From Escherichia coli (lineage in GTDB: Bacteria > Pseudomonadota > Gammaproteobacteria > Enterobacterales > Enterobacteriaceae), in the NCBI RefSeq assembly GCF_050920415.1, contig NZ_CP169309.1: a DNA stretch of 64,000 nt; one strand, 5' to 3'. A program made the translations under genes and the position numbers. Under the pieces are notes generated by a model, which did not search any database, was not told where the DNA came from, and saw only the letters and a program-made list of their open reading frames with translations. This document shows, piece by piece, positions 32,671 to 52,271 of the stretch. Position 1 is the first letter of the stretch. Each line of letters begins with the position of its first letter.

Positions 32671-33091
32671 ATTCTTATCCTTAAAATTAACCATGTTATC
32701 GATAAGGCTATATATGACCTTAATTTGCATCTAATATCAAAGGGATTATAACGATATGGCACGAGTTAACCTGTTGACATTCAGGTGTTTTAAAGGTAGC
32801 AGCTCATGGTGTGTTATCCAGTAAGAGGGAGAAAATTAACGGTCAGTTCTCACGCTATAACCAGATTGTTCAGCTAAGAAAGAAAACCAGAGATGCTAAT
32901 CGAAGGGCGAACACAACGGCATTGTTATGTTTATTTATATAGTTAGTTTTATAGCTAAAATTGAAATTATAAAAATAAATAATGAATTAGCAGGAGCATC
33001 AACAGTAATATCTTAATCTCTGGTCGATTTATGTAAAACCGACCAGTATTATCGATAAATTATCGTCTGACTTATTTTGCTTCGATAAAGC

Positions 33092-33436
33092 TTACACCGC
33101 AGCCACAATCTTAATTTCAACTTTATACTTCGGGTTCATCAAACCCGCTTGTACCGTGCAGCGCACCGGCGCATGACCCGCGACAACCCAGGCATCCCAC
33201 GCTTTATTCATCGCCGCGAAGTCGTTTTTATCAGCCAGGAAAATGGTGGCATCCAGAATGCTCGATTTATTGCTGCCCTGTTTTTCCAGCACGGCGTCAA
33301 TCTGCGCCAGCGTGTTGGCGGTTTGCTCAAAGGCATTGGCGTCAAGGTTTTCCGGCACACCCGTATAGTAGAGAGTGTTGTTGTGGATCACGACATCAGA
33401 CCAGCGGGCTTCGGCGTCGATACGAACGATAGTCAT
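33092..33436 (-). CDS. yoaB: RidA/YjgF-family protein YoaB
   Basis: ORF 33092..33484; start at MTIVRIDAEARW... gives 114 aa; GAGGA RBS. Confidence 0.85.
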   Translation of the reverse strand: MTIVRIDAEARWSDVVIHNNTLYYTGVPENLDANAFEQTANTLAQIDAVLEKQGSNKSSILDATIFLADKNDFAAMNKAWDAWVVAGHAPVRCTVQAGLMNPKYKVEIKIVAAV

Positions 33437-33567
33437 CATTTTGTCCTCATTATACTTCCATTTTCGTGCTGCAAAGACTGCCACAATGTGAGGTCGCCGT
33501 CACCACTTCAACTGGCGAAAGCGCCCTCATCCTGACATAATCCCTGTTCAAATCAACAGGGGGTAGT

Positions 33568-35478: not shown

Positions 35479-35535
35479 TTTGTGATGGAGTATGGTATGA
35501 TGCGCGCCTTTTTATTGATCTAAGCACGAAGACCC

Positions 35536-36231
35536 ATGCGAATTCTGGCTATCGATACCGCGACAGAGGCCTGCTCTGTCGCCCTGTGGAACGACGGTAC
35601 TGTCAACGCTCATTTTGAGCTTTGCCCTCGTGAACATACTCAACGAATCTTACCGATGGTGCAGGATATCCTGACCACCAGCGGAACTTCCCTGACGGAC
35701 ATAAATGCTCTGGCTTACGGGCGCGGCCCCGGTAGCTTTACCGGCGTGCGCATTGGTATTGGCATTGCGCAAGGGCTGGCGCTTGGCGCGGAATTACCGA
35801 TGATTGGCGTCTCCACGCTAATGACGATGGCGCAAGGGGCGTGGCGCAAAAACGGCGCAACCCGCGTGCTGGCAGCCATTGACGCGCGAATGGGCGAAGT
35901 TTACTGGGCCGAATATCAGCGTGATGAAAATGGTATCTGGCACGGTGAAGAAACCGAAGCCGTACTCAAACCTGAACTCGTTCATGAACGGATGCAACAG
36001 CTTTCCGGCGAATGGGTGACGGTAGGGACGGGCTGGCAAGCCTGGCCGGATCTCGGTAAAGAGAACGGTTTGGCCCTGCGCGATGGCGAAGTGTTACTGC
36101 CCGCTGCAGAAGATATGCTGCCGATTGCTTGTCAGATGTTTGCCGAGGGTAAAACGGTGGCGGTGGAACATGCCGAACCGGTTTATTTACGTAACAACGT
36201 CGCATGGAAGAAACTTCCGGGCAAAGAATGA
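35536..36231 (+). CDS. tsaB: tRNA t6A37 biosynthesis protein TsaB
   Basis: ORF 231 aa [17 protein letters not shown]... Confidence 0.95.
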
Positions 36232-36269
36232 ATCTTAAGAGTATGCCCTGAGAAAAAAGGAGTCGCATC

Positions 36270-36851
36270 ATGGCGGTTCAAAAGAATGTTATCAAAGGCA
36301 TACTGGCAGGTACGTTTGCGCTAATGCTGAGCGGTTGTGTTACTGTGCCGGATGCCATTAAAGGCAGCAGTCCCACGCCGCAACAAGATTTAGTTCGGGT
36401 GATGAGTGCGCCGCAGCTGTACGTTGGTCAGGAGGCACGCTTTGGCGGCAAAGTGGTTGCGGTACAAAACCAGCAAGGGAAAACCCGCCTGGAAATTGCT
36501 ACCGTACCGCTCGACAGCGGAGCCAGACCAACTTTGGGAGAACCTTCTCGCGGTCGCATTTATGCCGATGTGAACGGTTTTCTGGATCCGGTAGATTTTC
36601 GTGGACAATTGGTCACGGTAGTTGGACCAATCACCGGTGCGGTTGACGGCAAAATCGGCAACACGCCCTATAAATTTATGGTGATGCAGGTAACGGGTTA
36701 CAAACGTTGGCATTTAACCCAGCAGGTGATTATGCCGCCTCAGCCGATTGATCCATGGTTTTATGGCGGTCGTGGCTGGCCCTATGGCTACGGTGGATGG
36801 GGCTGGTATAATCCCGGCCCCGCGAGAGTACAAACTGTTGTAACTGAATAA
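36270..36851 (+). CDS. yeaY: Slp-family outer membrane lipoprotein YeaY
   Basis: ORF 193 aa with lipobox LSGC. Confidence 0.85.
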
Positions 36852-36872
36852 TTGCTTGTTTTTAAAGAAAAA

Positions 36873-36897
36873 GAAACAGCGGCTGGTCCGCTGTTTC
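36873..36897 (+). terminator. candidate terminator of yeaY
   Basis: stem GAAACAGCGG / CCGCTGTTTC; weak T-tract. Confidence 0.5.
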
Positions 36898-36966
36898 TGC
36901 ATTCTTACGGTAAAGATAAAAATAAATAGTGACGCGCTTCGCAACCTTTTCGTTGGGTAATCATCA

Positions 36967-36983
36967 AGCTGGTATGATGAGTT
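36967..36983. promoter_or_regulatory. candidate FadR operator upstream of fadD
   Basis: AGCTGGTATGATGAGTT resembles FadR consensus (ANCTGGTCNGACCTGTT), ~75 nt upstream of fadD start. Confidence 0.5.
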
Positions 36984-37055
36984 AATATTATGTTAACGGC
37001 ATGTATATCATTTGGGGTTGCGATGACGACGAACACGCATTTTAGAGGTGAAGAA

Positions 37056-38741
37056 TTGAAGAAGGTTTGGCTTAACCGTTATCCCGCGGACGTTCCGACG
37101 GAGATCAACCCTGACCGTTATCAATCTCTGGTAGATATGTTTGAGCAGTCGGTCGCGCGCTACGCCGATCAACCCGCGTTTGTGAATATGGGGGAGGTGA
37201 TGACCTTCCGCAAACTGGAAGAACGCAGTCGCGCGTTTGCCGCTTATTTGCAACAAGGGTTGGGACTGAAGAAAGGCGATCGCGTTGCGTTGATGATGCC
37301 TAATTTATTGCAATATCCGGTGGCGCTGTTTGGCATTTTGCGTGCCGGGATGATTGTCGTAAACGTTAACCCGTTGTATACCCCGCGTGAACTTGAGCAT
37401 CAGCTTAACGATAGCGGCGCATCGGCGATTGTTATCGTGTCTAACTTTGCCCACACTCTGGAAAAAGTGGTTGATAAAACCGCCGTTCAGCACGTAATTC
37501 TGACCCGTATGGGCGATCAGCTATCTACGGCAAAAGGCACGGTAGTCAATTTCGTTGTTAAATACATCAAGCGTCTGGTGCCGAAATACCATCTGCCAGA
37601 TGCCATCTCATTTCGTAGCGCCCTGCACAACGGCTACCGGATGCAGTACGTCAAACCCGAACTGGTGCCGGAAGATTTAGCTTTCCTGCAATACACCGGC
37701 GGTACCACTGGTGTGGCGAAAGGCGCGATGCTGACTCACCGCAATATGCTGGCGAACCTGGAACAGGTTAACGCGACTTATGGGCCGCTGTTGCATCCGG
37801 GCAAAGAGCTGGTGGTGACGGCGCTGCCGCTGTATCACATTTTTGCACTGACCATTAACTGCCTGCTGTTTATTGAACTGGGTGGGCAGAACTTGCTTAT
37901 CACTAACCCGCGCGATATTCCGGGGTTGGTAAAAGAGTTAGCGAAATATCCGTTTACCGCGATAACCGGCGTTAACACCTTGTTCAATGCGTTGCTGAAC
38001 AATAAAGAGTTCCAGCAGCTGGATTTCTCCAGTCTGCATCTTTCTGCAGGCGGTGGTATGCCTGTTCAACAAGTGGTGGCTGAACGTTGGGTGAAACTGA
38101 CCGGACAGTATCTGCTGGAAGGTTATGGCCTGACCGAGTGTGCGCCGCTGGTCAGCGTTAACCCGTATGATATTGATTATCATAGTGGTAGCATCGGTTT
38201 GCCGGTGCCGTCGACGGAAGCCAAACTGGTGGATGATGATGATAACGAAGTACCACCGGGTCAACCGGGTGAGCTTTGTGTCAAAGGACCGCAGGTGATG
38301 CTGGGCTACTGGCAGCGTCCGGATGCCACTGATGAAATCATCAAAAACGGTTGGCTACACACTGGCGACATTGCCGTAATGGACGAAGAAGGTTTCTTAC
38401 GCATCGTTGATCGCAAAAAAGACATGATTCTGGTTTCCGGTTTTAACGTCTATCCCAACGAGATTGAAGATGTCGTCATGCAGCATCCTGGCGTACAGGA
38501 AGTCGCGGCTGTTGGCGTACCTTCCGGCTCAAGTGGTGAAGCGGTGAAAATCTTCGTTGTGAAAAAAGATCCATCGCTTACCGAAGAGTCACTGGTGACT
38601 TTTTGCCGCCGTCAGCTCACGGGCTACAAAGTACCGAAGCTGGTGGAGTTTCGTGATGAGTTACCGAAATCTAACGTCGGAAAAATTTTGCGACGAGAAT
38701 TACGTGACGAAGCGCGCGGCAAAGTGGACAATAAAGCCTGA
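37056..38741 (+). CDS. fadD: long-chain fatty acid-CoA ligase
   Basis: ORF 36990..38741; known TTG start at 37056 giving (M)[15 protein letters not shown]..., 561 aa; AMP-binding motif [16 protein letters not shown]. Confidence 0.95.
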
Positions 38742-38760
38742 GCGTTAAGTCAGTCGTCAG

Positions 38761-38787
38761 ACGCCGGTTAATCCGGCGTTTTTTTTG
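38761..38787 (+). terminator. intrinsic terminator of fadD
   Basis: stem ACGCCGG / CCGGCGT, loop TTAAT, followed by TTTTTTTT. Confidence 0.85.
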
Positions 38788-38810
38788 ACGCCCACTAAAG
38801 AGAATACAAT

Positions 38811-39938
38811 TTGAATTACCAAATGATTACCACGGACGATGCGCTGGCTTCTTTGTGTGAAGCTGTCCGTGCCTTTCCGGCGATAGCCCTGGATACTGAA
38901 TTTGTTCGTACGCGCACCTATTACCCGCAGCTGGGTCTAATTCAACTTTTCGATGGCGAGCATCTGGCGCTAATTGATCCTCTCGTGATCACCGACTGGT
39001 CACCGCTGAAAGCGATCCTGCGCGATCCGTCCATCACAAAATTTCTCCATGCAGGCAGTGAAGATCTGGAAGTGTTCCTCAATGTCTTTGGCGAATTACC
39101 ACAACCCCTGATTGACACGCAAATCCTTGCTGCCTTCTGCGGACGCCCGATGTCATGGGGTTTTGCTTCCATGGTGGAAGAGTATTCCGGCGTTACGCTG
39201 GACAAGAGTGAATCGCGCACCGACTGGCTGGCCAGACCGCTGACTGAACGTCAGTGTGAATACGCAGCGGCGGATGTCTGGTATCTGTTACCGATCACCG
39301 CAAAGCTTATGGTAGAAACGGAGGCCTCCGGCTGGCTACCTGCGGCGCTGGATGAATGCCGCCTGATGCAAATGCGTCGTCAGGAAGTCGTTGCGCCGGA
39401 AGATGCCTGGCGTGATATCACCAATGCCTGGCAGTTACGCACACGCCAACTGGCCTGTCTGCAACTGTTAGCCGATTGGCGACTGCGTAAGGCGCGGGAG
39501 CGCGATCTGGCGGTGAACTTTGTCGTGCGTGAAGAGCATTTGTGGTCGGTAGCGCGTTATATGCCGGGAAGTTTAGGCGAACTGGACAGCCTGGGCTTAT
39601 CCGGTAGCGAAATCCGCTTTCACGGTAAAACGCTGCTGGCGCTGGTGGAAAAAGCGCAGACATTGCCGGAAGAGGCCTTACCGCAGCCGATGCTTAACCT
39701 GATGGACATGCCGGGTTATCGTAAAGCGTTTAAAGCGATTAAGTCGCTGATTACTGACGTGAGCGAAACACACAAGATCAGCGTCGAATTGCTGGCATCG
39801 CGTCGGCAAATCAACCAGCTGCTGAACTGGCACTGGAAACTGAAACCGCAGAACAATTTGCCGGAGCTGATTTCCGGCTGGCGTGGTGAGCTGATGGCGG
39901 AAGCATTACACAATTTATTGCAGGAATATCCACAGTAA
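38811..39938 (+). CDS. rnd: ribonuclease D
   Basis: ORF 375 aa; codon at 38811 is TTG (known UUG start of RNase D); DEDDy exonuclease plus HRDC domains. Confidence 0.95.
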   Translation: MNYQMITTDDALASLCEAVRAFPAIALDTEFVRTRTYYPQLGLIQLFDGEHLALIDPLVITDWSPLKAILRDPSITKFLHAGSEDLEVFLNVFGELPQPLIDTQILAAFCGRPMSWGFASMVEEYSGVTLDKSESRTDWLARPLTERQCEYAAADVWYLLPITAKLMVETEASGWLPAALDECRLMQMRRQEVVAPEDAWRDITNAWQLRTRQLACLQLLADWRLRKARERDLAVNFVVREEHLWSVARYMPGSLGELDSLGLSGSEIRFHGKTLLALVEKAQTLPEEALPQPMLNLMDMPGYRKAFKAIKSLITDVSETHKISVELLASRRQINQLLNWHWKLKPQNNLPELISGWRGELMAEALHNLLQEYPQ

Positions 39939-39944
39939 AATCTT

Positions 39945-39987
39945 CCGAAGCCGGACTGGGCGCGCTCAGCGCCACATCCGGCTTCGG
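39945..39987. repeat. REP-like palindromic hairpin between rnd and yeaX
   Basis: 11-bp perfect inverted repeat CCGAAGCCGGA...TCCGGCTTCGG with GC-rich 21-nt loop; no clear T-run. Confidence 0.5.
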
Positions 39988-39991
39988 CAAA

Positions 39992-40957
39992 CTACAAATC
40001 CAACACCAGGCGTTTACCCTTCGCGCGTGAACAACAGATCAACATACTTTGCTGGCTGGCACGCTCTTCATCGCTAAAATACTGATCCCGATGGTCAGCT
40101 TCACCTTCCAGTATTGCCGTTTCGCAGGTTCCGCATACCCCTTCACGACATAAACATTCCACTTTCGCTGCTTTATTATTTTCAATAACCTGCAAAATAG
40201 TCATCTCTTCCGGCACCACAAACTCTTTACCGGAACGGGCAAGCACCAGCGTAAATGCATCGCCGGTTTTGTCTTCGATAGCAAATTGCTCAAAGTGCAG
40301 CGTATCGGTGACGATGTCCAGACGCCCAGCTTCACTTCTTACCGCCTCATTTAGCGCCTCGGGGCCACAGGTATAAACATGTGTGCCAGGTTCGATATCC
40401 GCCAATAATCGCGCTAATTCCAGTCGTGTTCCGGTTGATGAATGATGCAAATGGACTTTCTCGGCCTGCGGATGCTGGACTAGCTCATCACGAAATGCGC
40501 AACTTTCTGGATTTCGCGAGCAGTAATGTAACTGCCAGTCGACGTCGCTGTATTGCAACTCTGCCATGTGCGACAGGAAAGGGGTGATACCAATACCGCC
40601 CGCGATAAACAGATGCTTTCTGGCCGAGGGAATTAGCGCAAACAGGTTATTCGGCGTTGAAATCGTTAACCGATCGCCAGCCTTCACTTTCTGATGTAAA
40701 AAACGCGAACCACCGCGCGAATTTTCTTCCAGTCGAACGGCAATCTGATAACGAGACGTATCGAGTGGCGAACTCAGCAGTGAGTACGCATTGCTGTACT
40801 GGTTATCACCATCGGCCATCTGCACAATGATGTGACTTCCGCCGTTGAACGCAGGCAGCGGTTTGCCCTCAGTTGCCACCAGCGTGAAGCGTTTCACCTG
40901 TTCGGTAAGCGGTTCAACCTGGCTCACCTGTACTTCAAACATTTGGTAGTTTGACAT
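39992..40957 (-). CDS. yeaX: carnitine monooxygenase reductase subunit (FMN/2Fe-2S oxidoreductase)
   Basis: ORF 321 aa; plant-type ferredoxin Cys motif CREGVCGTCE near C-terminus. Confidence 0.9.
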   Translation of the reverse strand: MSNYQMFEVQVSQVEPLTEQVKRFTLVATEGKPLPAFNGGSHIIVQMADGDNQYSNAYSLLSSPLDTSRYQIAVRLEENSRGGSRFLHQKVKAGDRLTISTPNNLFALIPSARKHLFIAGGIGITPFLSHMAELQYSDVDWQLHYCSRNPESCAFRDELVQHPQAEKVHLHHSSTGTRLELARLLADIEPGTHVYTCGPEALNEAVRSEAGRLDIVTDTLHFEQFAIEDKTGDAFTLVLARSGKEFVVPEEMTILQVIENNKAAKVECLCREGVCGTCETAILEGEADHRDQYFSDEERASQQSMLICCSRAKGKRLVLDL

Positions 40958-41012
40958 TGCTGTACTCCATCAAAAATCAGCCCGGCGGCGGAAAATACCG
41001 CCGCCGATGTCA

Positions 41013-42137
41013 TTAGTCCTTAAACACCTGCGCCAGCAGATTATGGAAATGGGCGATACCGTGTTCGGAAATTCCGCTACCGCTACTGTCGGCCATGATG
41101 CGCCCCTGACCACGATAGCCACGCGATTTCAGCCCTTTCTGTACGCTTTCAACCAGACGTAAATCTTCCGGACGGAACACGTCGCGATACCACTCAATCA
41201 GTGATTTTTGCTCGTCGGTTAACTCTTCATTGGTGAAGTAAATATCGTAGTTTTGCAGGGTAGTTTCAGAATCCACCGGGAATTCATAAATGACCGTCAT
41301 CATCCCTTTGATAGGCGTAACGTTCAGCATTGTGCACGGCCACAGCCAGAAACCGTGGAATGCCGCATCCGTACCCTCTTCAAATTTGAAAGACTGTTCG
41401 GACGGTTTGGCGAAACCGTATTGCAGCGTCCAGTTACCGTGCATGGTGTGCCAGTAACGATCAACCTGAACGGAGTCGGAGAAACCTGGATGCACCGGAC
41501 CACAGTGATAGCACTCGAGATAGTTATCGACAATGTTCTTCCAGTTGGCAGGCGTGCGGGTGGTAAAACGGGCCGCCAGTTTCAGGTCATGGACTTCCGG
41601 GCAGGCTTCCAGCACTTTCTCTCCCAGACCGGGTAACTGATCTTCTACGCTGGTGGCGTTGGGGTCCATGTTGATGAAGACGAATCCGGCATATTCTTCC
41701 AGACGCACCGGAACCAGTTGCGCTTTGTCACTATCGAAATTGGCGACGTTTTCGCAGTTACGCGCATGGGCCAGGTTGCCATCGAGTTTGAATGCCCAGG
41801 CGTGATACGGACAGGTAATTACATTTTTCGCTTTCCCTTCGCCGCTCAATAACTGATGACCACGGTGTGGACAAACGTTATAGAACGCGCGCAAAACCTT
41901 ATCACGACCGCGTACCAGCACGATGCTTTCACCAATGATCTCACGGGTCACGTAATCATTGGCATTCGCCAGTTCGCTGCTGTGAGCGACACAAATCCAG
42001 CTTTTGGCGAAGACGTTCTCTTTTTCGTGTTCAAAGGCATTCTGATCAGTATAAAAACGGGCAGGAATGGTCCACGCCTCTTGCGGGTTAGCGCAAAAAT
42101 TTTCGGGTAGTACAAAGTCAGGGCTCAGATTGCTCAT
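41013..42137 (-). CDS. yeaW: carnitine monooxygenase oxygenase subunit (Rieske)
   Basis: ORF 41013..42257; start at MSNLSPDFVLPENF... gives 374 aa; Rieske motif CPHRGH...CPYHAW. Confidence 0.9.
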   Translation of the reverse strand: MSNLSPDFVLPENFCANPQEAWTIPARFYTDQNAFEHEKENVFAKSWICVAHSSELANANDYVTREIIGESIVLVRGRDKVLRAFYNVCPHRGHQLLSGEGKAKNVITCPYHAWAFKLDGNLAHARNCENVANFDSDKAQLVPVRLEEYAGFVFINMDPNATSVEDQLPGLGEKVLEACPEVHDLKLAARFTTRTPANWKNIVDNYLECYHCGPVHPGFSDSVQVDRYWHTMHGNWTLQYGFAKPSEQSFKFEEGTDAAFHGFWLWPCTMLNVTPIKGMMTVIYEFPVDSETTLQNYDIYFTNEELTDEQKSLIEWYRDVFRPEDLRLVESVQKGLKSRGYRGQGRIMADSSGSGISEHGIAHFHNLLAQVFKD

Positions 42138-42168
42138 AGGGATACCTTTATCGTTAGGATGATGGCGT

Positions 42169-43779
42169 TCAGTTGTCGCCTTTGAATACGGTTCCAGCAG
42201 GAAGCACTGGCGCTTTTCCCGGGGCTTCAACCGGTGTCTGCGGGAGATAATGTTCAACTTGATGAGCTGGAATGTCGGCGTAATCCTGTTTCAGCCAGCG
42301 AATAAATCCGCCGACTTTCACCAGTAAAATGGCGAGGAAGGGAAGGGCAGTGAGGACGACGGTAGTTTTCATTGTTTCCAGCGAAGCACCGGTAAACAAG
42401 ATGGAAAGCGGGATCAGAGTGATCACTACGCACCAGAACAGACGCAGCCCACGGTCAGGATCGTCACCTTCCTGGAGATTACGCGTGCTGGTCGCCGCCA
42501 TGGTGTAAGCCACCGCATCCATATGCGAGGCGAGGAAGATAATCATCACGCCCAGGTATGCGGCGAGGAACAATTTACCGGCTGGCAACGACATCAGAAC
42601 TTGCTGCACAGCTGTTTCGCCGCCCAGTGTTTCCAGCACCTGTGGGACGTTGATTACGCCATTGATAAACTGATGAATGGCATAGCTTTCCATTACACCG
42701 AAGAAGAACCAGCAACCGACAGTGCTGCCGAGGATCAGTCCCCAGATAACTTCTTTAATCTTTCGACCGCGCGAAACGCGGGTGACAAACATTGCTACGC
42801 CAGGGGTGTATGAGATCCACCACAGCCAGTAGAAAACGGTCCAGTTGCGGGTAAATGAACCATCGCCAAGCGGATCGGTGAATAAGCTCATTTGCAGGAA
42901 GTTTTGCGTGGTCAGGCCGATGGCATTGATGATGCTGTTGGTAATAAATTCGGTTGGACCGACAATCAGCACCAGTAATGGCAGCAGGAATGCGCCCCAG
43001 CCAACCATTTTGCTTAGACGTTGCAAACCGTTGTTGATACCAATCCACGAGCTTAGGCAAAAAATGCCGCCGGAAAGCAGGATCACAAATGCCTGTACGG
43101 TAAAGTTATCGGGTAAACCGGTCAGCGCGGAAAGCCCACGGGTAAAGGTTGCTGCGGTGACAACAAGGGAAATGGTCAGTGCGCCGACAGTGGCGATCAG
43201 GAACATCAAATCGACCAGTTTCCCCCACGGGCCTTGCGGGCGAACGCCGGTAATAGCAGCAATAATGCCGGAAAGGCTCAGCCCTTTATTTTTCCGCACA
43301 TGAAAGTGATAAGCCATGATTAATGAGGCCAGCGTATAAGTTGCCCAGGCGCTGATGCCCCAGTGGAAGAAGGAGTAGGGAACGCTAAATTCGAGTGCCT
43401 GTTGTGAACGCGGTGCGATATTTAATCCAGGCGTTTGATAATAATAGGCCCATTCAGCAACCCCCCAATAAAGCGTAGAAGAACCTAAACCTGCACAAAT
43501 AAACATAAACAGCCAGGAGAGCGTGCTGTATTCCGGTTTTCCTTCGCCAAGACGAATATTGCCGTATTTACTGGTGGCTAAATAAATCACCAGTCCCATT
43601 GCCAGCAAAACCAATACCTGTACGGCGGAACCTAACGTACGCGTGACAAAAGTGTATATAGCGTTTGCCGCGTCGGCCGATTGTTGTGGGAAAAGGCTTA
43701 ATGCAGCTGCGATGAAAAGAATGGCCACCAGGCTGATGCTTATCAACGGCACATCTTTTTTCTTAACATTGCTCATCAT
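42169..43779 (-). CDS. yeaV: BCCT-family transporter
   Basis: ORF 536 aa with AGGAG RBS 7 nt upstream of ATG at 43779; K-12 annotation as recalled is shorter, so start uncertain. Confidence 0.85.
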
Positions 43780-43982
43780 GAGTCATCTCCTGGGCATAAA
43801 AGCCCGCCTCTGGCTTTTGCCAGTTGTAATTATTTGCAGGGTATGAGTTGTATGTTGTGTTTAACAAATTGATTATTTACATGTTACATAAATTAAACAA
43901 TTAAGAATACGGAAAGCCATAAAACACGAAACGGAAACAATAAAAGGTGAAATGACGCAGGTTATTTACTGCAAAGAACGAA

Positions 43983-44010
43983 TAAAAAAACCGCGTCAGT
44001 GACGCGGTTC
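43983..44010 (-). terminator. intrinsic terminator after dmlA
   Basis: minus-strand hairpin ACCGCGTC-ACT-GACGCGGT followed by TTTTTTT. Confidence 0.8.
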
Positions 44011-44028
44011 AAATAAACTGGTTTGACC

Positions 44029-45114
44029 TTAACGCAAAATAATTTTGCAAATCGCGTCGGCAACCTGTGGCGTGGTGGCATTGCCTTTCATATCAGGTGT
44101 TTTCGGCCCGTGAGCAATCACTTCTTCAATCGCGGCCAGAATACCGTTATGCGCTTGCTGGAAACGCTCATCGCCATTGCCGAGAAAATCGAGCATCATT
44201 GCACCGGCCCAAATCGTGGCGATAGGGTTAGCAATATTTTTCCCGTAGATATCCGGCGCGGAACCGTGGACTGGCTCGAAGAGCGACGGGAAAGTGCGTT
44301 CCGGATTCAGGTTGGCGGATGGGGCAATGCCAATGGTGCCGGTGCAGGCCGGGCCAAGATCGGAAAGGATATCGCCAAACAAATTGGACGCCACTACCAC
44401 ATCGAAGCGTTCCGGCTGCATCACAAAACGTGCGCAGAGAATGTCAATATGCTGCTTGTCCCAGCGGATCTCCGGGTAATTCTCAGCCATTGCTTCCACT
44501 CGCTCATCCCAATACGGCATGCTGATGGCTAAACCGTTCGATTTAGTGGCAGAAGTTAGCGTCTTACGTGGGCGGCTTTGCGCAAGTTCAAAGGCATAGC
44601 GCAAAATACGATCGACACCACGACGAGTAAATACCGATTCCTGAATGACGACTTCATGCTCTGTACCTTCATTCACTCTACCGCCGAGCGAGGAATATTC
44701 GCCTTCGGTGTTTTCCCTGACCACGTAAAAATCGATGTCGCCAGGCTGTTTTCCCGCCAGCGGGCAGGGAACGCCAGGAAAGAGACGAACCGGGCGCAGG
44801 TTGACGTACTGGTCGAACTCACGACGAAATTTCAGCAGCGAACCCCACAACGAAATATGGTCCGGAACGGTATCCGGCCAGCCGGCGGCACCAAAATAGA
44901 TGGCGTCGAAACGGCTAAGTTGCTCATGCCAGTCGTCCGGCATCATTTTACCGTGATGGCTGTAATACTCGCAGCTCGCCCACTCCATTTGCTCAAAACT
45001 CAAGGCGAAGCCCCAGCGCTCAGCGGCAGCCTGTAACACGCGAATCCCTTCAGGAAGGACTTCTTTGCCAATCCCGTCTCCCGGGATCGCAGCAATACGC
45101 ATCGTTTTCATCAT
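44029..45114 (-). CDS. dmlA: D-malate dehydrogenase (decarboxylating)
   Basis: ORF 361 aa MMKTMRIAAIPGDGIGKEV...; isocitrate/isopropylmalate dehydrogenase family. Confidence 0.9.
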   Translation of the reverse strand: MMKTMRIAAIPGDGIGKEVLPEGIRVLQAAAERWGFALSFEQMEWASCEYYSHHGKMMPDDWHEQLSRFDAIYFGAAGWPDTVPDHISLWGSLLKFRREFDQYVNLRPVRLFPGVPCPLAGKQPGDIDFYVVRENTEGEYSSLGGRVNEGTEHEVVIQESVFTRRGVDRILRYAFELAQSRPRKTLTSATKSNGLAISMPYWDERVEAMAENYPEIRWDKQHIDILCARFVMQPERFDVVVASNLFGDILSDLGPACTGTIGIAPSANLNPERTFPSLFEPVHGSAPDIYGKNIANPIATIWAGAMMLDFLGNGDERFQQAHNGILAAIEEVIAHGPKTPDMKGNATTPQVADAICKIILR

Positions 45115-45216
45115 TGGGTTCTCACTTCCTGACCATCAAAATTGACAACCTCACCATCCTATAATTGACTGAAAAGGAATTAATCCCCGCAACTGGTGAA
45201 ACATAAAACACGAATC

Positions 45217-46140
45217 ATGAATAATTTACCGCTGCTGAACGATTTGCGCGTCTTTATGCTGGTGGCTCGCCGGGCTGGTTTTGCCGCTGTGGCGGAAGAA
45301 TTGGGTGTTTCACCGGCTTTTGTCAGCAAACGCATTGCCTTGCTGGAACAAACGCTAAATGTGGTGTTGTTACACCGTACCACCCGCCGCGTCACCATTA
45401 CCGAAGAAGGAGAGCGGATTTATGAATGGGCGCAGCGGATTTTGCAGGATGTCGGCCAGATGATGGACGAACTTTCTGACGTGCGTCAGGTGCCGCAGGG
45501 GATGCTGCGTATTATCAGCAGCTTTGGTTTTGGACGACAGGTAGTGGCTCCGGCGTTATCAGCGCTGGCGAAAGCGTATCCGCAACTGGAATTACGTTTT
45601 GATGTGGAAGACCGGTTGGTCGATTTGGTCAATGAAGGTGTCGATCTCGACATTCGCATTGGCGATGACATCGCCCCTAATTTAATCGCCCGCAAACTGG
45701 CGACCAATTACCGTATTCTCTGCGCATCGCCGGAATTTATTGCGCAATATGGCACGCCGAAACATTTAACCGACCTTTCTGCATTGCCGTGCCTGGTCAT
45801 TAAAGAGCGCGATCATCCTTTTGGTATCTGGCAATTACGCAATAAAGAAGGCCACCATGCGATTAAAGTCACCGGCCCGCTGTCGTCTAATCATGGAGAA
45901 ATTGTTCATCAGTGGTGTCTTGATGGTCAGGGGATTGCGCTACGCTCCTGGTGGGATGTCAGCGAAAATATTGCCAGTGGTCATTTAGTGCAAGTGCTAC
46001 CGGAGTATTACCAGCCAGCAAATGTCTGGGCCGTTTATGTTTCAAGGCTGGCGACGTCAGCGAAAGTGCGGATAACGGTAGAATTTTTACGCCAGTATTT
46101 TGCCGAGCACTACCCGAATTTTTCACTGGAGCATGCCTGA
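45217..46140 (+). CDS. dmlR: LysR-family regulator DmlR
   Basis: ORF 45196..46140; start at MNNLPLLNDLRVF... gives 307 aa; divergent from dmlA. Confidence 0.9.
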   Translation: MNNLPLLNDLRVFMLVARRAGFAAVAEELGVSPAFVSKRIALLEQTLNVVLLHRTTRRVTITEEGERIYEWAQRILQDVGQMMDELSDVRQVPQGMLRIISSFGFGRQVVAPALSALAKAYPQLELRFDVEDRLVDLVNEGVDLDIRIGDDIAPNLIARKLATNYRILCASPEFIAQYGTPKHLTDLSALPCLVIKERDHPFGIWQLRNKEGHHAIKVTGPLSSNHGEIVHQWCLDGQGIALRSWWDVSENIASGHLVQVLPEYYQPANVWAVYVSRLATSAKVRITVEFLRQYFAEHYPNFSLEHA

Positions 46141-46197
46141 TTAATGATTCAATTATCGGGTTGATATCGGGTTAAAACCTGATTTTCTCCTTTCTAA

Positions 46198-46905
<708 letters not shown>

Positions 46906-46912
46906 TGCTTTC

Positions 46913-46932
46913 AGCCCGCGTTATCGCGGGCT
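46913..46932 (+). terminator. candidate terminator of leuE
   Basis: stem AGCCCGCG / CGCGGGCT, loop TTAT; weak T-tract. Confidence 0.5.
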
Positions 46933-46988
46933 TCCTGCCTGTAATCTTTCCTTATTCATCGCTGATACGGTGCTAAAAAGTAACCAAT

Positions 46989-47011
46989 AAATGGTATTTA
47001 AAATGCAAATT
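46989..47011. promoter_or_regulatory. candidate NsrR operator upstream of yeaR
   Basis: AAATGGTATTT-A-AAATGCAAATT resembles the 11-1-11 NsrR inverted repeat (AAGATGCATTT-N-AAATGCATCTT); ~70 nt upstream of yeaR. Confidence 0.45.
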
Positions 47012-47077
47012 ATCAGGCGTACCCTGAAACGGCTGAAATAAACTGTTTTCAGCACATTCATCGAAGGAGGGAAAAGG

Positions 47078-47437
47078 ATGCTGCAAATCCCACAGAATTA
47101 TATTCATACGCGCTCAACGCCTTTCTGGAATAAACAAACTGCGCCTGCCGGAATATTCGAACGTCATCTTGATAAAGGAACGCGCCCGGGGGTATACCCA
47201 CGCCTTTCCGTTATGCATGGGGCGGTCAAATATCTCGGCTACGCTGATGAACACAGTGCAGAACCTGATCAGGTGATCCTTATCGAAGCGGGGCAGTTTG
47301 CGGTGTTTCCGCCAGAAAAGTGGCACAACATTGAAACCATGACTGACGATACTTATTTCAACATTGACTTCTTCGTTGCTCCTGAAGTCCTGATGGAAGG
47401 CGCGCAACAACGGAAAGTCATTCATAACGGGAAATGA
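47078..47437 (+). CDS. yeaR: DUF1971 protein YeaR
   Basis: ORF 119 aa. Confidence 0.9.
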   Translation: MLQIPQNYIHTRSTPFWNKQTAPAGIFERHLDKGTRPGVYPRLSVMHGAVKYLGYADEHSAEPDQVILIEAGQFAVFPPEKWHNIETMTDDTYFNIDFFVAPEVLMEGAQQRKVIHNGK

Positions 47438-47440
47438 ATC

Positions 47441-47623
47441 ATGGGCAAAGCAACGTATACCGTGACCGTTACCAATAACAGCAATGGTGTTTCTGTCGAT
47501 TATGAAACAGAGACGCCGATGACTTTGCTGGTGCCAGAAGTGGCGGCTGAAGTGATAAAAGATCTGGTGAATACCGTGCGTTCTTATGACACGGAAAACG
47601 AACATGATGTTTGTGGTTGGTAA
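47441..47623 (+). CDS. yoaG: DUF1869 protein YoaG
   Basis: ORF 60 aa, 3 nt downstream of yeaR. Confidence 0.85.
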   Translation: MGKATYTVTVTNNSNGVSVDYETETPMTLLVPEVAAEVIKDLVNTVRSYDTENEHDVCGW

Positions 47624-47770
47624 TTATCACTGATCGTAGATGGCGCAATTTCTGCGCCATCGCAAAAAAATCCTCCGTGATGCTTGTCACAAATCTTGCC
47701 CTCCTGATGTTGTGCTATGCTTTTTATCAGCGACTAACCCGCTAATGCAAAACAGATAAGTGAGGAAACA

Positions 47771-48019
47771 ATGGGCATTCTGTCATGGATTATTTTTGGG
47801 CTTATTGCCGGTATTCTGGCGAAGTGGATCATGCCAGGTAAAGATGGTGGTGGATTCTTTATGACTATCCTGCTGGGAATAGTCGGTGCCGTAGTCGGCG
47901 GATGGATCAGCACGCTGTTTGGCTTTGGTAAAGTCGATGGCTTCAATTTTGGCAGCTTCGTGGTTGCCGTTATTGGTGCGATTGTCGTGCTGTTTATCTA
48001 CAGAAAGATCAAAAGTTAA
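47771..48019 (+). CDS. yeaQ: GlsB/YeaQ/YmgE-family small membrane protein
   Basis: ORF 82 aa, Gly-rich TM helices. Confidence 0.85.
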   Translation: MGILSWIIFGLIAGILAKWIMPGKDGGGFFMTILLGIVGAVVGGWISTLFGFGKVDGFNFGSFVVAVIGAIVVLFIYRKIKS

Positions 48020-48032
48020 CGCGTAAATTGCA

Positions 48033-48067
48033 CAAAGGCTGCACACAGGCAGCCTTTGCTATTTTTT
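48033..48067 (+). terminator. intrinsic terminator of yeaQ
   Basis: stem CAAAGGCTGC / GCAGCCTTTG followed by CTATTTTTT. Confidence 0.8.
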
Positions 48068-48077
48068 AGATGTGACG

Positions 48078-48152
48078 TTACCACCATCCCAACTCAGTGC
48101 CGAGAACGACAATAATCGCTACGCCCATCATAATAATCGTTGTTTTTTTCAT
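48078..48152 (-). CDS. yoaJ: small membrane protein YoaJ
   Basis: 24-codon ORF MKKTTIIMMGVAIIVVLGTELGWW read by eye on minus strand; not in ORF track. Confidence 0.7.
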   Translation of the reverse strand: MKKTTIIMMGVAIIVVLGTELGWW

Positions 48153-48154
48153 CT

Positions 48155-48253
48155 TTATGCTCCCGGGGCAGCATAGCCGCCAATAAAAAACCATGCTAAA
48201 AATACGACCGCTGTAATAAAGATTACAACCGGAAAAATAATACCGATTCGCAT
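48155..48253 (-). CDS. yoaK: small membrane protein YoaK
   Basis: 32-codon ORF MRIGIIFPVVIFITAVVFLAWFFIGGYAAPGA read by eye; stop 2 nt before the yoaJ ATG. Confidence 0.7.
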   Translation of the reverse strand: MRIGIIFPVVIFITAVVFLAWFFIGGYAAPGA

Positions 48254-48285
48254 GTTATCACCAATCAAAAGGATGTGAATACGCC

Positions 48286-49311
48286 TCAGGAATGTAGCAC
48301 TGAATGCGCGACAAAAGGTGTTTTCTGTTTGTGTTTTTTCTCCTGATACATCGCGATATCGGCAGCATGCAGGGCGCTGTCTGCATCGGTCGTTTCAGGA
48401 TCGACTTCTACTATGCCAAGACTGGCACCAGGATAATACAAATCAACATCACCTAAGTGATATTCTCCGCGTATTTGCTGTTGAATACGTTCTCGCAGCG
48501 ATGGAATATCCGCATTCTCATTGTTCAGTGAAACAACCAAAAACTCATCACCGCCGAGACGACCAATAACTTCGCCATTTTGCTGGAGCGTATTAAGGCG
48601 CTCGCCAACCTGAATAAGAAACAGATCGCCACTATTATGACCAAAACGATCATTGATTAATTTGAAGTTATCCAGATCGATAAATGCGATCATTATCTTA
48701 TGGTTAAGATGCCGGGCGAGGGAAAACAGCGTCGTCAGATTTTCAAAAATCGCCCGCCGATTTGGTAACCCGGTTAACGAGTCGGTATACGATTGCGCAA
48801 TCAGCGCGGCATTGGCTTCGCGCAGCTGTTCTACCAGCGCCTCTTTTTGAATATATTGTGCAATCAGTCCGGCGAATAACTGCAAAACCTGTTCCGCGCG
48901 TTCACTCCACTGGCGCTTCTCACTGCTGGCGGCGCAAAGCGTGCCATAGAATGATCCATCCGGTAAGTGAATTGGCGTGCTCAGAAATGTGGTGATGCCA
49001 AGATTGCGTGCCGCAATACAGTCGCCCCAACGGTCGGGGACTTCATCGCTGAAAAAGCAGTTTTCATCAATGGCGCGTTTGCATAACGAGTAATCCCACG
49101 AGACGGTAAAATTCTCCGGGATGTGCATTTTCTGGCTGTTACGGGCAAACATTATATGCTGCAGGCGCGCTTCGACATCCACTTTGGTCAGGTAGGTTGA
49201 TTCCATATCAGTGACCATTTCCAGCATCTCCAGAAGCTGTCGGACCAGACTTTCCAGTGACTGTTCTTTGGCAAGGGATTGCGAGACGCGGGCGATAATC
49301 TGATCTGACAC
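48286..49311 (-). CDS. dgcP: diguanylate cyclase DgcP
   Basis: ORF 48286..49440; GTG start giving (M)SDQIIARVSQ..., 341 aa; GAF-like N-domain and GGDEF motif RLGGDEFLVV. Confidence 0.9.
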   Translation of the reverse strand: MSDQIIARVSQSLAKEQSLESLVRQLLEMLEMVTDMESTYLTKVDVEARLQHIMFARNSQKMHIPENFTVSWDYSLCKRAIDENCFFSDEVPDRWGDCIAARNLGITTFLSTPIHLPDGSFYGTLCAASSEKRQWSERAEQVLQLFAGLIAQYIQKEALVEQLREANAALIAQSYTDSLTGLPNRRAIFENLTTLFSLARHLNHKIMIAFIDLDNFKLINDRFGHNSGDLFLIQVGERLNTLQQNGEVIGRLGGDEFLVVSLNNENADIPSLRERIQQQIRGEYHLGDVDLYYPGASLGIVEVDPETTDADSALHAADIAMYQEKKHKQKTPFVAHSVLHS

Positions 49312-49493
49312 GAAACAACTCCAGGATACGGCGGGTAAATGCTGATTATTTAATCTTTGCAGGCATGATAAAACATCATCAACAAAGATGAAACAAGGCG
49401 TAATATGATTTGAGTGAATGTAATAAAAATAGTGCTGCAAAACAAAACGATACCGCGATACTCTAAGCCTGGATAAATATGTGAGATCAATAA

Positions 49494-49748
49494 ATGAAAA
49501 TTATCAGTTTTGTTCTGCCTTGCTTGCTGGTCCTGGCTGGTTGTTCAACCCCTTCTCAGCCAGAAGCACCTAAACCGCCGCAGATTGGTATGGCAAATCC
49601 GGCGTCGGTCTATTGCCAGCAGAAGGGCGGGACGCTCATTCCTGTGCAGACAGCGCAAGGGGTCAGCAACAATTGCAAATTACCGGGCGGTGAAACGATT
49701 GATGAATGGGCATTGTGGCGACGGGACCATCCGGCTGGTGAAAAATAA
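49494..49748 (+). CDS. yoaF: DUF333 lipoprotein YoaF
   Basis: ORF 84 aa with lipobox LAGC. Confidence 0.85.
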   Translation: MKIISFVLPCLLVLAGCSTPSQPEAPKPPQIGMANPASVYCQQKGGTLIPVQTAQGVSNNCKLPGGETIDEWALWRRDHPAGEK

Positions 49749-49769
49749 CCGCCGGATGCTGCACTAAAA

Positions 49770-50117
49770 TCACAAGCTACGTAGCCAGTCGGCCAGCACC
49801 AGCGCATGGTTCTGCGTGGTGTTTTTTGCTGAGTAGAGCAGGGTCAGCGGCTGTTTTTTGGCGATGTCTGCCAGCCGCTTTCCTTCTTGCTCGTGTTGCG
49901 TCAGTTCTGCAAGATATTGCTCGCGAAAGGTTGCAAAATCGACGACTTCGCCGTGAAAGGCTTTGCGCAGTTCCGTTGACGGCGTGATTTCTTTATCCCA
50001 CTCATCAAGGGCTAAATCGGTTTTTTTGATACCGCGTGGCCAGAGGCGGTCGACCAGTACGCGATAACCATCGCTCTGTTCAGCCGGATCATAAACGCGT
50101 TTGCACTGAATATTCAT
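49770..50117 (-). CDS. yeaO: DUF488 protein YeaO
   Basis: ORF 49770..50138; start at MNIQCKRVYD... gives 115 aa. Confidence 0.85.
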   Translation of the reverse strand: MNIQCKRVYDPAEQSDGYRVLVDRLWPRGIKKTDLALDEWDKEITPSTELRKAFHGEVVDFATFREQYLAELTQHEQEGKRLADIAKKQPLTLLYSAKNTTQNHALVLADWLRSL

Positions 50118-50171
50118 CGTATTTGTTCTCCCTTTCACGCATGATTTGTCACGTCACTATAGCACCGGATA

Positions 50172-51353
50172 TTAGCGAATTTCTTTGTCTCTCCCGGCGC
50201 AAAGTCCGAAAATCGCCATCAGTAGTGAAAGTATTGCAACACCCATCAGTGGTACGGACCAGTCACCGTTAGCATCGTGTATTTTACCCATCAGTGGCGG
50301 CCCACAGGCTGCCAGCAAATACCCGACGGATTGTGCCATCCCCGAGAGTGCCGCCGCCTGATGCGCAGAACTTGCCCGCAGACCAATGAACGTCAACCCC
50401 AGTATCATTGTTGCGCCGGAACCAAAACCGAAAAGCAGAGTCCAGGTGATCGCGTGTGCTGGCATAAAGCAGAGCCCAACCGCGCCCACTGCGCACATCA
50501 AGGCAACGAACGCTGCAATACCACGCTGATCTTTCACATGATGTAAGAAAAGTGGGATCAGCAAGCCGGGAGCTGCTGTGGCTAGTTGCAGCAAACCATG
50601 CAGTGAACCCGCCTGTGCTTCGCTATAGCCGTGACTGATGAGGATCGCCGGAAGCCAGCCAATAATCACGTAATAGACCAGTGAGTTGATCCCAAGAAAC
50701 AATGTCACCTGCCAGGCAAGCGGCGAACGCCAGATACCCCGAGTATGTAAGGCGCGTGAGGTACTCAAATTTGCATGTTGTTGACTTCGCCACTGTGGCA
50801 GCCATAAAAAAAGAGCCAGCAGAGGAAAACACATCAGCATGAGCAACGCGCCTTGCCAGCCAAAACCGTTCAAAGCCAGCGGCACTACCATAGCCGATCC
50901 CAGTGCCGCCGCAGCTCCCATTGTCAGGGAATATGCGCCGGTAAGTCTGGCGACGGAATGAGGGAAATCGCGTTTAATTAATCCTGGCAGTAAGACATTG
51001 CCTAATGCAATCCCACCGCCAATGACCGCTGTACCGCCAAATAATAAGTAAGGCGAAGGGAGAGAGCGAATTGCAATACCAGCACAGATCAAAAGTAACG
51101 CGGCAAACAGGCTACGTTCCATACCAAAACGTCGCGCCACCGGGGCGGCCAGCGGTGAGATTAGCGCAAAGGCTAATAATGGCAGGGTGGTCAATAAGCC
51201 GGTTTGCGCCGTCGTTAGCGAGTAAGCGGAACGAATCGTATCCAGTAACGGTGCTGCGCCGGTAAAGGTGACGCGTAATGTTGTGGCAATCATCAGAATG
51301 CCAGCGATAAGGACAATCCTGTTTTTACCGCTTAATGAAGTTGAACAGGTCAT
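50172..51353 (-). CDS. nimT: MFS exporter NimT
   Basis: ORF 393 aa, 12-TM MFS. Confidence 0.9.
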   Translation of the reverse strand: MTCSTSLSGKNRIVLIAGILMIATTLRVTFTGAAPLLDTIRSAYSLTTAQTGLLTTLPLLAFALISPLAAPVARRFGMERSLFAALLLICAGIAIRSLPSPYLLFGGTAVIGGGIALGNVLLPGLIKRDFPHSVARLTGAYSLTMGAAAALGSAMVVPLALNGFGWQGALLMLMCFPLLALFLWLPQWRSQQHANLSTSRALHTRGIWRSPLAWQVTLFLGINSLVYYVIIGWLPAILISHGYSEAQAGSLHGLLQLATAAPGLLIPLFLHHVKDQRGIAAFVALMCAVGAVGLCFMPAHAITWTLLFGFGSGATMILGLTFIGLRASSAHQAAALSGMAQSVGYLLAACGPPLMGKIHDANGDWSVPLMGVAILSLLMAIFGLCAGRDKEIR

Positions 51354-51449
51354 ATGCTTCTCATTGTCACAAACGAGGCTGTACCTTACCGTTTTTATTG
51401 TTATGTTGAATCAAGCTAAAATGACAAAATATCGCTAAATTCTGACAAA

Positions 51450-52271
51450 ATGATGCACAGGTTGAATCTCAATGGCTATGAACCCGACCGACACCATGAA
51501 GCCGCGGTCGCATTTTGTATTCACGCCGGAACGGATGAGTTAACCAGTCCTGTACATCAGCACCGCAAAGGGCAGCTGATACTGGCGCTACATGGTGCAA
51601 TTACCTGTACGGTGGAAAATGCGTTGTGGATGGTGCCGCCGCAATATGCGGTTTGGATACCGGGAGGGGTGGAACATAGCAATCAAGTGACAGCTAACGC
51701 TGAACTCTGTTTTTTGTTTATAGAGCCCAGCGCAGTGACAATGCCGACAACATGTTGCACATTGAAAATATCGCCCTTATGCCGGGAATTAATTTTAACC
51801 CTGGCAAACAGGACGACGACTCAGCGTGCTGAGCCGATGACCCGCAGATTAATTCAGGTCCTGTTTGATGAACTCCCTCAGCAGCCACAACAACAGCTGC
51901 ACCTGCCCGTTTCTTCTCATCCTAAAATCCGCACGATGGTGGAGATGATGGCGAAAGAGCCCGTTGAGTGGGGCTCATTGGGGCAATGGGCTGGCTTTTT
52001 TGCGATGAGTGAACGCAATCTTGCCCGGCTGATAGTGAAAGAGACGGGGTTGAGTTTTCGCCAGTGGCGTCAGCAGTTACAGCTGATTATGGCGCTTCAG
52101 GGATTAGTGAAAGGCGATACTGTACAGAAAGTTGCTCATACGCTGGGGTATGATTCAACAACGGCCTTTATTACTATGTTTAAGAAAGGCCTGGGGCAAA
52201 CGCCAGGCCGATATATTGCGGGATTAACTACTGTTTCCCCACAATCAGCGAAACCAGACCCGCGGCAATAA
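51450..52271 (+). CDS. nimR: AraC-family regulator NimR
   Basis: ORF 273 aa; cupin-like N-domain and AraC HTH C-domain. Confidence 0.9.

Follow-up and report, generated by a model that had tools for sequence, protein, structure and literature searches.

In Acinetobacter baumannii, carnitine is cleaved to trimethylamine and malic semialdehyde, and the aldehyde is carried by way of D-malate to pyruvate (Piskol 2024, PMC11353897). The genes for this lie side by side, with the regulator gene carR diverging from a run that reads mdh-bcct(Aci01347)-hyd-cntA-msadh-cntB, and the same paper describes the cluster of Escherichia coli as five orthologues, those of carR, mdh and bcct together with cntA and cntB, standing without hyd and msadh. 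The carnitine-to-trimethylamine cluster of E. coli is, in other words, already known and well studied. Here we return to one copy of it, the genes dmlR, dmlA, yeaV, yeaW and yeaX at positions 39,992 to 46,140 of a 64,000-nucleotide stretch of E. coli DNA (contig NZ_CP169309.1 of assembly GCF_050920415.1; the whole stretch is called “the window” below). What are these five genes to one another, and is the set whole? We think it very likely that they form one inherited module for the aerobic breakdown of L-carnitine, carried here in the intact, ancestral Escherichia form. What we add to the published picture is modest and incremental: a split of the E. coli population into three alleles, a lesion in the reference strains, a candidate box for DmlR together with a predicted promoter, and a hairpin between yeaW and yeaX.

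The five genes have the order and orientation of their Acinetobacter orthologues, and the interval begins and ends exactly at the stop codons of yeaX (39992) and dmlR (46140). On the plus strand, dmlR (45217-46140; PGAP and Pfam) encodes a LysR-type regulator orthologous to CarR and diverges from dmlA (44029-45114; PGAP and TIGR02089, the latter at 562 bits, over the cut-off), which encodes a decarboxylating D-malate dehydrogenase, the orthologue of mdh. On the minus strand with dmlA lie yeaV (42169-43779; open reading frame, PGAP and profile match), encoding a full-length BCCT transporter of 536 residues; yeaW, or cntA (41013-42137; open reading frame, PGAP, Pfam and a match to CntA), encoding the Rieske-type oxygenase subunit of carnitine monooxygenase; and yeaX, or cntB (39992-40957; open reading frame, PGAP and Pfam), encoding a reductase dependent on reduced nicotinamide adenine dinucleotide (NADH). 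These calls combine the open reading frames and their translations with the PGAP annotation of NZ_CP169399.1 (strain MFDS1022581), which is 100% identical to the window over 39000-47000; a mechanical list of open reading frames overshoots at two starts, taking yeaW to a TTG at 42257 (annotated start 42137) and dmlR to a GTG at 45196 (annotated 45217). Pfam finds NAD_binding_1 and Fer2 in YeaX, Rieske and Ring_hydroxyl_A in YeaW, Iso_dh in DmlA, and HTH_1 and LysR_substrate in DmlR. A first-pass annotation made from the letters alone had named all five genes, set yeaVWX on the minus strand beside dmlA and drawn dmlR as divergent, and in this it was correct to the base. Its description of yeaVWX as a single operon holds for the layout, with the caveat that a strong, conserved hairpin at 40982-41007 splits yeaW from yeaX.

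That annotation also took dmlA and dmlR for mere neighbours of the carnitine genes, and here we part from it. They are orthologues of Acinetobacter mdh and carR, and they are syntenic with cntA in most of the 80 loci that we collected by a YeaW scan (one genome per species) and searched by tblastn with the five window proteins and the Acinetobacter products of hyd and msadh. If R, A, V, W and X stand for the dmlR, dmlA, yeaV, yeaW and yeaX orthologues, a divergent R followed by A-V-(hyd)-W-(msadh)-X is the order in most of these loci and in nine or more genera, the groups being Escherichia, Citrobacter, Yersinia, Serratia, Xenorhabdus, Acinetobacter, Pseudomonas, Neisseriaceae and Vitreoscilla. 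In Paraburkholderia, R, W, msadh and X are retained, and some loci have A on the other strand, a few kilobases further downstream. An order that recurs in this way across genera argues that the adjacency of the five genes is inherited and no coincidence, and dmlA and dmlR belong to the carnitine module. Identities to Acinetobacter by tblastn are 45-49% for R, 69-72% for A, 53-55% for V (against the carnitine/choline transporter Bcct), 71-74% for W and 48-52% for X; the published values are 45, 72, 56, 72 and 52% (PMC11353897). The two systems are alike in enzyme chemistry, with D-malate as the downstream intermediate. They differ in that the E. coli cluster is without hyd and msadh and has a spacer of 249 bp with an intrinsic terminator between dmlA and yeaV, where Acinetobacter has about 57 bp. 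The closest clusters outside Escherichia are those of Citrobacter (divergent R, then A-V-W-msadh-X), with YeaW 88-94% and YeaV 82-93% identical, and they share with the window the terminator, the boxes, the predicted promoter and the hairpin before cntB that are described below.

The window allele of YeaW and YeaX is, judged by its sequence, a carnitine monooxygenase of the CntA/CntB type. Between YeaW and the CntA of A. baumannii, whose structure is given by PDB 6y8j and related entries, identity is 73% (E = 5e-197), so that the homology proposed in the first-pass annotation is upheld, and the motifs quoted there are present: CPHRGH...CPYH in YeaW (C89-H112) and CREGVCGTC in YeaX, where a C-X4-C-X2-C motif from residue 270 goes with a plant-type 2Fe-2S domain and an NAD-binding domain. 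Alignment with the active site of CntA had been set beforehand as the check that could overturn the assignment, and no refutation came of it. When the functional residues listed in the structure paper (PMC7948474) are mapped onto YeaW, 19 of 19 are identical: the Rieske ligands C86, H88, C106 and H109 of CntA (C89, H91, C109 and H112 in YeaW); the iron triad H208, H213 and D323 with the bridging E205 (H211, H216 and D325 with E208); all seven pocket residues, Y203, Y225, F258, N270, Y295, Y315 and F319; and, further, C206, C209, F216 and F247. Residues implicated in docking (PMC9508527) are present as well, R271, K313 and D320 in YeaX and R83, K104 and K117 in YeaW. Stc2 (stachydrine demethylase) and GbcA (glycine betaine monooxygenase), other group V Rieske oxygenases that act on quaternary amines, have the same Rieske and catalytic-domain architecture and the same type of partner reductase. 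They are distant from the window YeaW, whose pocket residues are those of CntA: against GbcA it scores 153 bits where the cut-off is 670, and PDB entries 3vca and 4qup align with it over no more than its ~200 N-terminal residues (23-226 of the query, the Rieske domain among them).

The substrate range, which the first-pass annotation regarded as not fully settled, is in fact largely settled in print. The E. coli YeaW and YeaX have been purified and characterised, chimeras with CntA and CntB included, flavin mononucleotide (FMN) is the cofactor of YeaX, and carnitine-dependent formation of trimethylamine is published for the proteins of E. coli strain KO11FL (PMC9508527). As summarised in the same paper, the E. 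coli enzyme and related CntA proteins have high activity on carnitine and gamma-butyrobetaine, medium on glycine betaine and very low on choline. One residue of the window protein may be recorded here for itself: Val215 of YeaW (41495-41497), which adjoins the iron ligand His216, is alanine in K-12 YeaW and in A. baumannii CntA.

With yeaV we come to the point at which the window and the laboratory strains diverge. The window YeaV matches the NCBIfam profile PRK09950 (NF007412) over positions 1-536 of 536 at 1028 bits, where the cut-off is 647, and its Pfam BCCT domain covers residues 14-499. A segment of 223 bp at 43652-43874 is absent, by genome comparison, from K-12 MG1655 and BL21(DE3), and with it go codons 1-43 of yeaV and the first membrane helix (at residues 11-29 by its hydropathy peak), the ribosome-binding site, the 5' leader in full and one half of the predicted -10 hexamer, within which the deletion begins, turning AATAAT into AATTTT. 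PGAP calls K-12 yeaV a pseudogene “missing N-terminus” and gives BL21(DE3), which has the same geometry, the same flag; in the full-length profile test, too, the K-12 protein fails for want of its N-terminus. The yeaVWX of K-12 and BL21, which serves as the reference allele in most studies, thus differs from that of the window in the missing 223 bp, the missing native ribosome-binding site and leader, and an altered predicted -10. The full-length gene is the ancestral form, and the window carries the intact version, as we conclude from its end-to-end profile match, from its presence in Escherichia albertii, in two Escherichia cryptic-clade genomes and in Citrobacter, and from its codons 1-43, which have a nonsynonymous rate (dN) of 0 and a synonymous rate (dS) of 0.20. 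All five genes are under purifying selection, with dN/dS at 0.01-0.10 whether the comparison is with K-12 or with an Escherichia cryptic-clade genome. Relative to K-12, two residues are changed in YeaW, one in DmlA, five in DmlR, 14 in YeaX and four in residues 44-536 of YeaV.

How common is each form? Among 5426 complete E. coli genomes, 4372 have yeaW; the 223-bp segment is intact in 2930 (~54%), the K-12 junction is found in 1439 (about a quarter, including MG1655, W3110, TG1 and ATCC 8739), and the cluster is absent from about 1054 (about a fifth, the CFT073 type). In these last genomes, exemplified by CFT073 and strain S8, all five genes have been lost together, and all that remains is 21 nt from yeaX, 167 nt from dmlA and the 3' end of dmlR. 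We found no mention of the 223-bp lesion in the searchable literature. An independent lesion is seen in Escherichia whittamii (L005 ~6996-7003; window equivalent 43143-43223), where a frameshifting deletion of 89 nt falls in yeaV while yeaW and yeaX are kept. The window itself lacks one T in the non-coding yeaV leader near 43845, making 223 nt where other E. coli have 224.

It would be unsafe to call yeaV dead in K-12 on account of the lesion. Other carnitine importers exist in E. coli. The K-12 and BL21 remnants differ from each other at seven positions, all of them synonymous, and overexpressed K-12 yeaV altered metabolite uptake, depleting carnitine among many other metabolites (PMC10971958); on these two grounds, the short allele may still work. 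In O157 Sakai, where the cluster is intact, yeaV and yeaW rise modestly on entry into stationary phase (PMC2241611).

The space between dmlA and yeaV holds most of what we can say about control. An intrinsic terminator of dmlA at 43981-44010 on the minus strand (hairpin 43983-44010), recognised by its fold and its conservation, reads GAACCGCGTCA-C-TGACGCGGTT followed by seven Ts; the hairpin starts 19 nt past the stop codon of dmlA and does not vary in Escherichia or Citrobacter. It had been cited in the first-pass annotation as an argument against cotranscription, and it is real. This terminator and the 249-bp spacer (190-620 bp in other Enterobacterales and in Pseudomonas) support, as far as sequence can, separate transcripts for dmlA and yeaVWX, unlike the one unit, running from mdh through cntB, that would be expected of a complete operon of the Acinetobacter type. 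Downstream lies a predicted yeaV promoter (43872-43900, minus strand) with a -35 of TTGTTT, a 17-nt spacer and a -10 of AATAAT; in an alignment of Escherichia and Citrobacter the hexamers are conserved and the spacer between them varies, a pattern that would fit a weak, activator-dependent promoter. A second AAATAAT at 43829-43835 was considered as the -10 and rejected: it has no -35, and Citrobacter has GATAAC there. The yeaV leader (43787-43823, minus strand) has hairpins CTGGCAAAAGCCAG and GGGCTTTTATGCCC and then the ribosome-binding site AGGAG, ending in a GGGC-loop-GCCC directly 5' of AGGAG and the ATG; its GGGC..GCCCAGGAGAT is kept in most Escherichia and Citrobacter loci, and one (L018) has CCGGC..GCCCGGGAGAT.

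Over the 154 bp at 43875-44028, the window is 99.4% identical to K-12, 98.7% to the two cryptic-clade genomes and 95.5% to E. albertii, whereas flanking genes at the same distances are 82-92% identical; against Escherichia sp. E1V33 the mismatch is 1.3%, far below synonymous change (dS 0.33-0.36). A spacer that is so much more conserved than the genes and synonymous sites around it points to a non-coding stretch under strong constraint. Just past the dmlA terminator, at 43953-43968, we also noticed a third copy of CCTGCGTCA, kept in Citrobacter as AACCTGCG and complementary to the 3' arm of the terminator (81% over 16 nt). As an anti-terminator it was rejected, lying as it does after the T-run, where it cannot act so; this downstream copy is probably due to chance.

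Upstream of the predicted promoter is the feature that leads us to a regulator. The window contains two exact copies of the 13-mer TTCGTGTTTTATG and no more, each on the minus strand: one lies at 43918-43930, upstream of yeaV, and the other at 45202-45214, between dmlR and dmlA. Among 1000 dinucleotide-preserving shuffles of the spacer, two reach a 13-base match and four reach the local alignment score. On the yeaV side the 13-mer is part of a conserved block (43910-43949, minus strand), a candidate LysR-type binding region made of two tandem boxes, CACCTTTTATTGTTTCCG and TTCGTGTTTTATGGCTTTCCG, 22 nt apart, the repeats running TTTTAT..TTTCCG. On the other side it belongs to the box TTCGTGTTTTATGTTTCACC (45195-45214, minus strand) of the dmlR-dmlA control region, which reads as GTG-N10-CAC and is to be compared with TTCGTGTTTTATGGCTTTCCG upstream of yeaV; the yeaV box of Citrobacter is a clean dyad, CGTG-N11-CACG. 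The best -10 candidate follows the end of the box by 31 nt in the case of dmlA (TATAGG) and by 33 nt in that of yeaV (AATAAT). Citrobacter, Yersinia and Serratia all have the core GTGTTTTAT as the longest string common to both spacers, and in the same position. Some Xenorhabdus loci have another common core, TAAATTAT, with CGTAAATTATGT as the dmlA-side box and TAAATTAT(GT) in the yeaV spacer; in the spacers of Pseudomonas and Acinetobacter, gapless 20-mer matching gave no convincing common box.

A box common to the upstream regions of dmlA and yeaV suggests that DmlR, the orthologue of CarR, is the most likely regulator of yeaVWX and may act at both promoters. CarR itself binds its DNA in a carnitine-dependent manner (PMC11353897), and beyond the statement of orthology we found nothing in the searchable literature that ties DmlR to yeaVWX. 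A CRP site upstream of yeaV was considered and set aside: the halves of the conserved GTG..CAC dyad stand 10-11 nt apart, those of the CRP consensus eight. The dmlR-dmlA region also holds, at 45128-45169, tandem repeats of about 22 nt, GTCAATTATAGGATGGTGAGG and GTCAATTTTGATGGTCAGG, and conservation of GTCAATTATAGGAT extends to Yersinia and Xenorhabdus; the repeats probably serve dmlA as elements of its promoter or of an activator site.

Between yeaW and yeaX, the spacer of 55 bp in Escherichia holds a GC-rich hairpin (40982-41007, minus strand), followed by GGGCUGAUUUUU and the ribosome-binding site of yeaX. It folds at -28.4 kcal/mol (z = -5.6), and over 12 sequences from Escherichia and Citrobacter, six of its 11 pairs stay paired despite changes on both sides. 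The hairpin would probably attenuate transcription or stabilise the upstream message, and in that way set the level of the reductase apart from that of the oxygenase. It is homologous to an element that follows msadh in the Citrobacter clusters that have this gene, which many Citrobacter loci carry between W and X and others do not. The latter (L014 9130-9199 and L081, compared with L011 10590-10654) keep a CTGTAA, the last codon and stop of msadh, a scar indicating that the gene was lost from them recently and cleanly. Escherichia is without the scar but has kept the hairpin.

How might the whole work? YeaV would import a quaternary amine, as its homology suggests. In YeaX, electrons from NADH would travel by way of FMN and a 2Fe-2S cluster of the plant type; from there they would reach the Rieske cluster and then the mononuclear iron in a trimeric YeaW, and YeaW would oxygenate carnitine or gamma-butyrobetaine, with breakage of the C-N bond to give trimethylamine and malic semialdehyde, a reaction shown biochemically in the literature for the E. 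coli enzyme. Since the cluster's own msadh is missing in Escherichia, an aldehyde dehydrogenase encoded elsewhere, for which GabD is the published candidate, would then have to make D-malate, which DmlA, by its known activity, would convert to pyruvate and CO2. The dmlA message would end at the terminator, yeaVWX would be read from its own promoter region with the box that it has in common with dmlR-dmlA, and DmlR would regulate.

Several observations weigh against this picture of an intact module under DmlR, and they are best put together. A consensus promoter scan gave no match upstream of yeaV, where the hexamers are weak and the prediction rests on conservation across species. In Escherichia, the yeaV box has a degenerate right half (TCCG, not CACG); outside Escherichia, gapless 20-mer matches between the boxes are not significant in any one genus (p = 0.05-0.5), which we ascribe to the one base of spacing by which the two boxes differ; and the dmlA-side box abuts the start codon of dmlR and could serve dmlR's own expression. 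DmlR reportedly responds to D-malate, not to carnitine (work of Lukas in 2010). By tblastn, msadh has no match in the window slice 33001-52000 or in the Escherichia loci L005-L008, and with hyd absent too, the steps from the aldehyde through D-malate to pyruvate are not guaranteed. The E. coli strains BL21, B and K12 fail to grow on carnitine, a BL21 extract was without detectable activity, and public datasets show no cntA transcription in E. coli, for which no condition of expression is known (Piskol 2024, PMC11353897). The two of these three non-growers that we compared, K-12 and BL21(DE3), carry the 223-bp lesion, and this weakens the objection from growth without removing it.

Should one, then, give up the idea of a module and see two unrelated neighbours, with dmlR-dmlA as a D-malate/tartrate regulon and yeaVWX as an independent, orphan operon that forms trimethylamine? 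The strong terminator between dmlA and yeaV is in keeping with this, as is the part that DmlA also plays in D-malate, tartrate and leucine metabolism (PMC11353897), but it would leave unexplained the linkage of all five genes in most of the 80 loci, in Gamma- and Betaproteobacteria alike, their joint loss in CFT073-type genomes, the box common to both control regions and the position of D-malate as a proven downstream intermediate of carnitine cleavage (PMC11353897), and we consider it very improbable. Less easily dismissed, though we think it unlikely, is a decaying or repurposed remnant: carnitine would be no carbon source in Escherichia, and the cluster would trim a pool of carnitine kept as compatible solute, an adjustment that Piskol proposed (PMC11353897), or would be on its way to loss. 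The missing msadh and hyd, the failure to grow on carnitine and the want of a known expression condition all suit such a remnant, as do the independent lesions (1439 genomes of K-12 type, whole-cluster loss in about 1054 and the E. whittamii deletion). Decay sits badly, however, with the low dN/dS of the genes, with the absence of nonsynonymous change in codons 1-43 of yeaV, with the 2930 genomes that keep the cluster intact and with a control region that has changed far less than synonymous sites; moreover, the laboratory strains that were checked, K-12 and BL21(DE3), carry the lesion, and in O157 Sakai, which does not, yeaV and yeaW are induced (PMC2241611).

Somewhat more credible, though we would still not bet on it, is the proposal that yeaVWX answers to something other than DmlR, whether to catabolite or stationary-phase control alone or to an unlinked regulator, the common 13-mer being an inherited duplication or an accident. 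The presence of yeaV among the predicted targets in CRP genomic SELEX (systematic evolution of ligands by exponential enrichment), the stationary-phase induction in O157 and the weakness of the box matches outside Enterobacteriaceae can all be read in this sense, and conservation next to the dmlR start codon could partly serve the translation of dmlR. Accident is hard to reconcile with the rarity of such matches among the shuffles (2-4 per 1000), with two copies on the same strand at similar distances from a predicted -10, or with a core that persists in the otherwise diverged spacers of Yersinia and Serratia, and the GTG-N11-CAC spacing is unlike the GTG-N8-CAC of the CRP consensus. We continue to prefer a single module with DmlR as its candidate regulator.

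A few observations concern the locus more than the pathway. The module is flanked by rnd (38823-39938; open reading frame and PGAP) on the yeaX side and by leuE (46267-46905; likewise) on the dmlR side, both on the plus strand. The yeaW DNA of the window strain is 96.5-96.9% identical to other alleles in the sampled rows, with the protein two residues from that of K-12, and among the 4372 genomes that match yeaW, only the strain's own is at least 99% identical; its yeaX DNA and that of K-12 agree at 94.4%, the two proteins differing in 14 residues. The yeaW/yeaX stretch (39992-42137) may be an imported patch or one from a divergent lineage. In BL21(DE3), yeaR, two genes past dmlR, is broken by an IS4-like IS421 insertion (L004 13967-15675).

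What does it matter whether a fragment of DNA is present at the front of yeaV? Trimethylamine made from carnitine by gut bacteria has been associated with cardiovascular disease, and surveys of the human gut name E. coli as the chief carrier of cntA (PMC5433236). We suggest, tentatively and with more doubt than belief, that the roughly 54% of E. coli with an intact cluster turn carnitine or gamma-butyrobetaine into trimethylamine and pyruvate by a functional pathway under the control of DmlR, in which a housekeeping aldehyde dehydrogenase has taken the place of msadh. If this is true, the negative results on expression and growth behind the doubts about the physiological role of the cluster would stem from the testing of laboratory strains of phylogroup A, of which K-12 and BL21(DE3) at least are lesioned, and counts of cntA in gut metagenomes would mis-estimate the potential for trimethylamine unless the 5' end of yeaV is scored as well. 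With DmlR as candidate regulator, a defined box and a predicted promoter, the timing of cntA expression in E. coli becomes directly testable.

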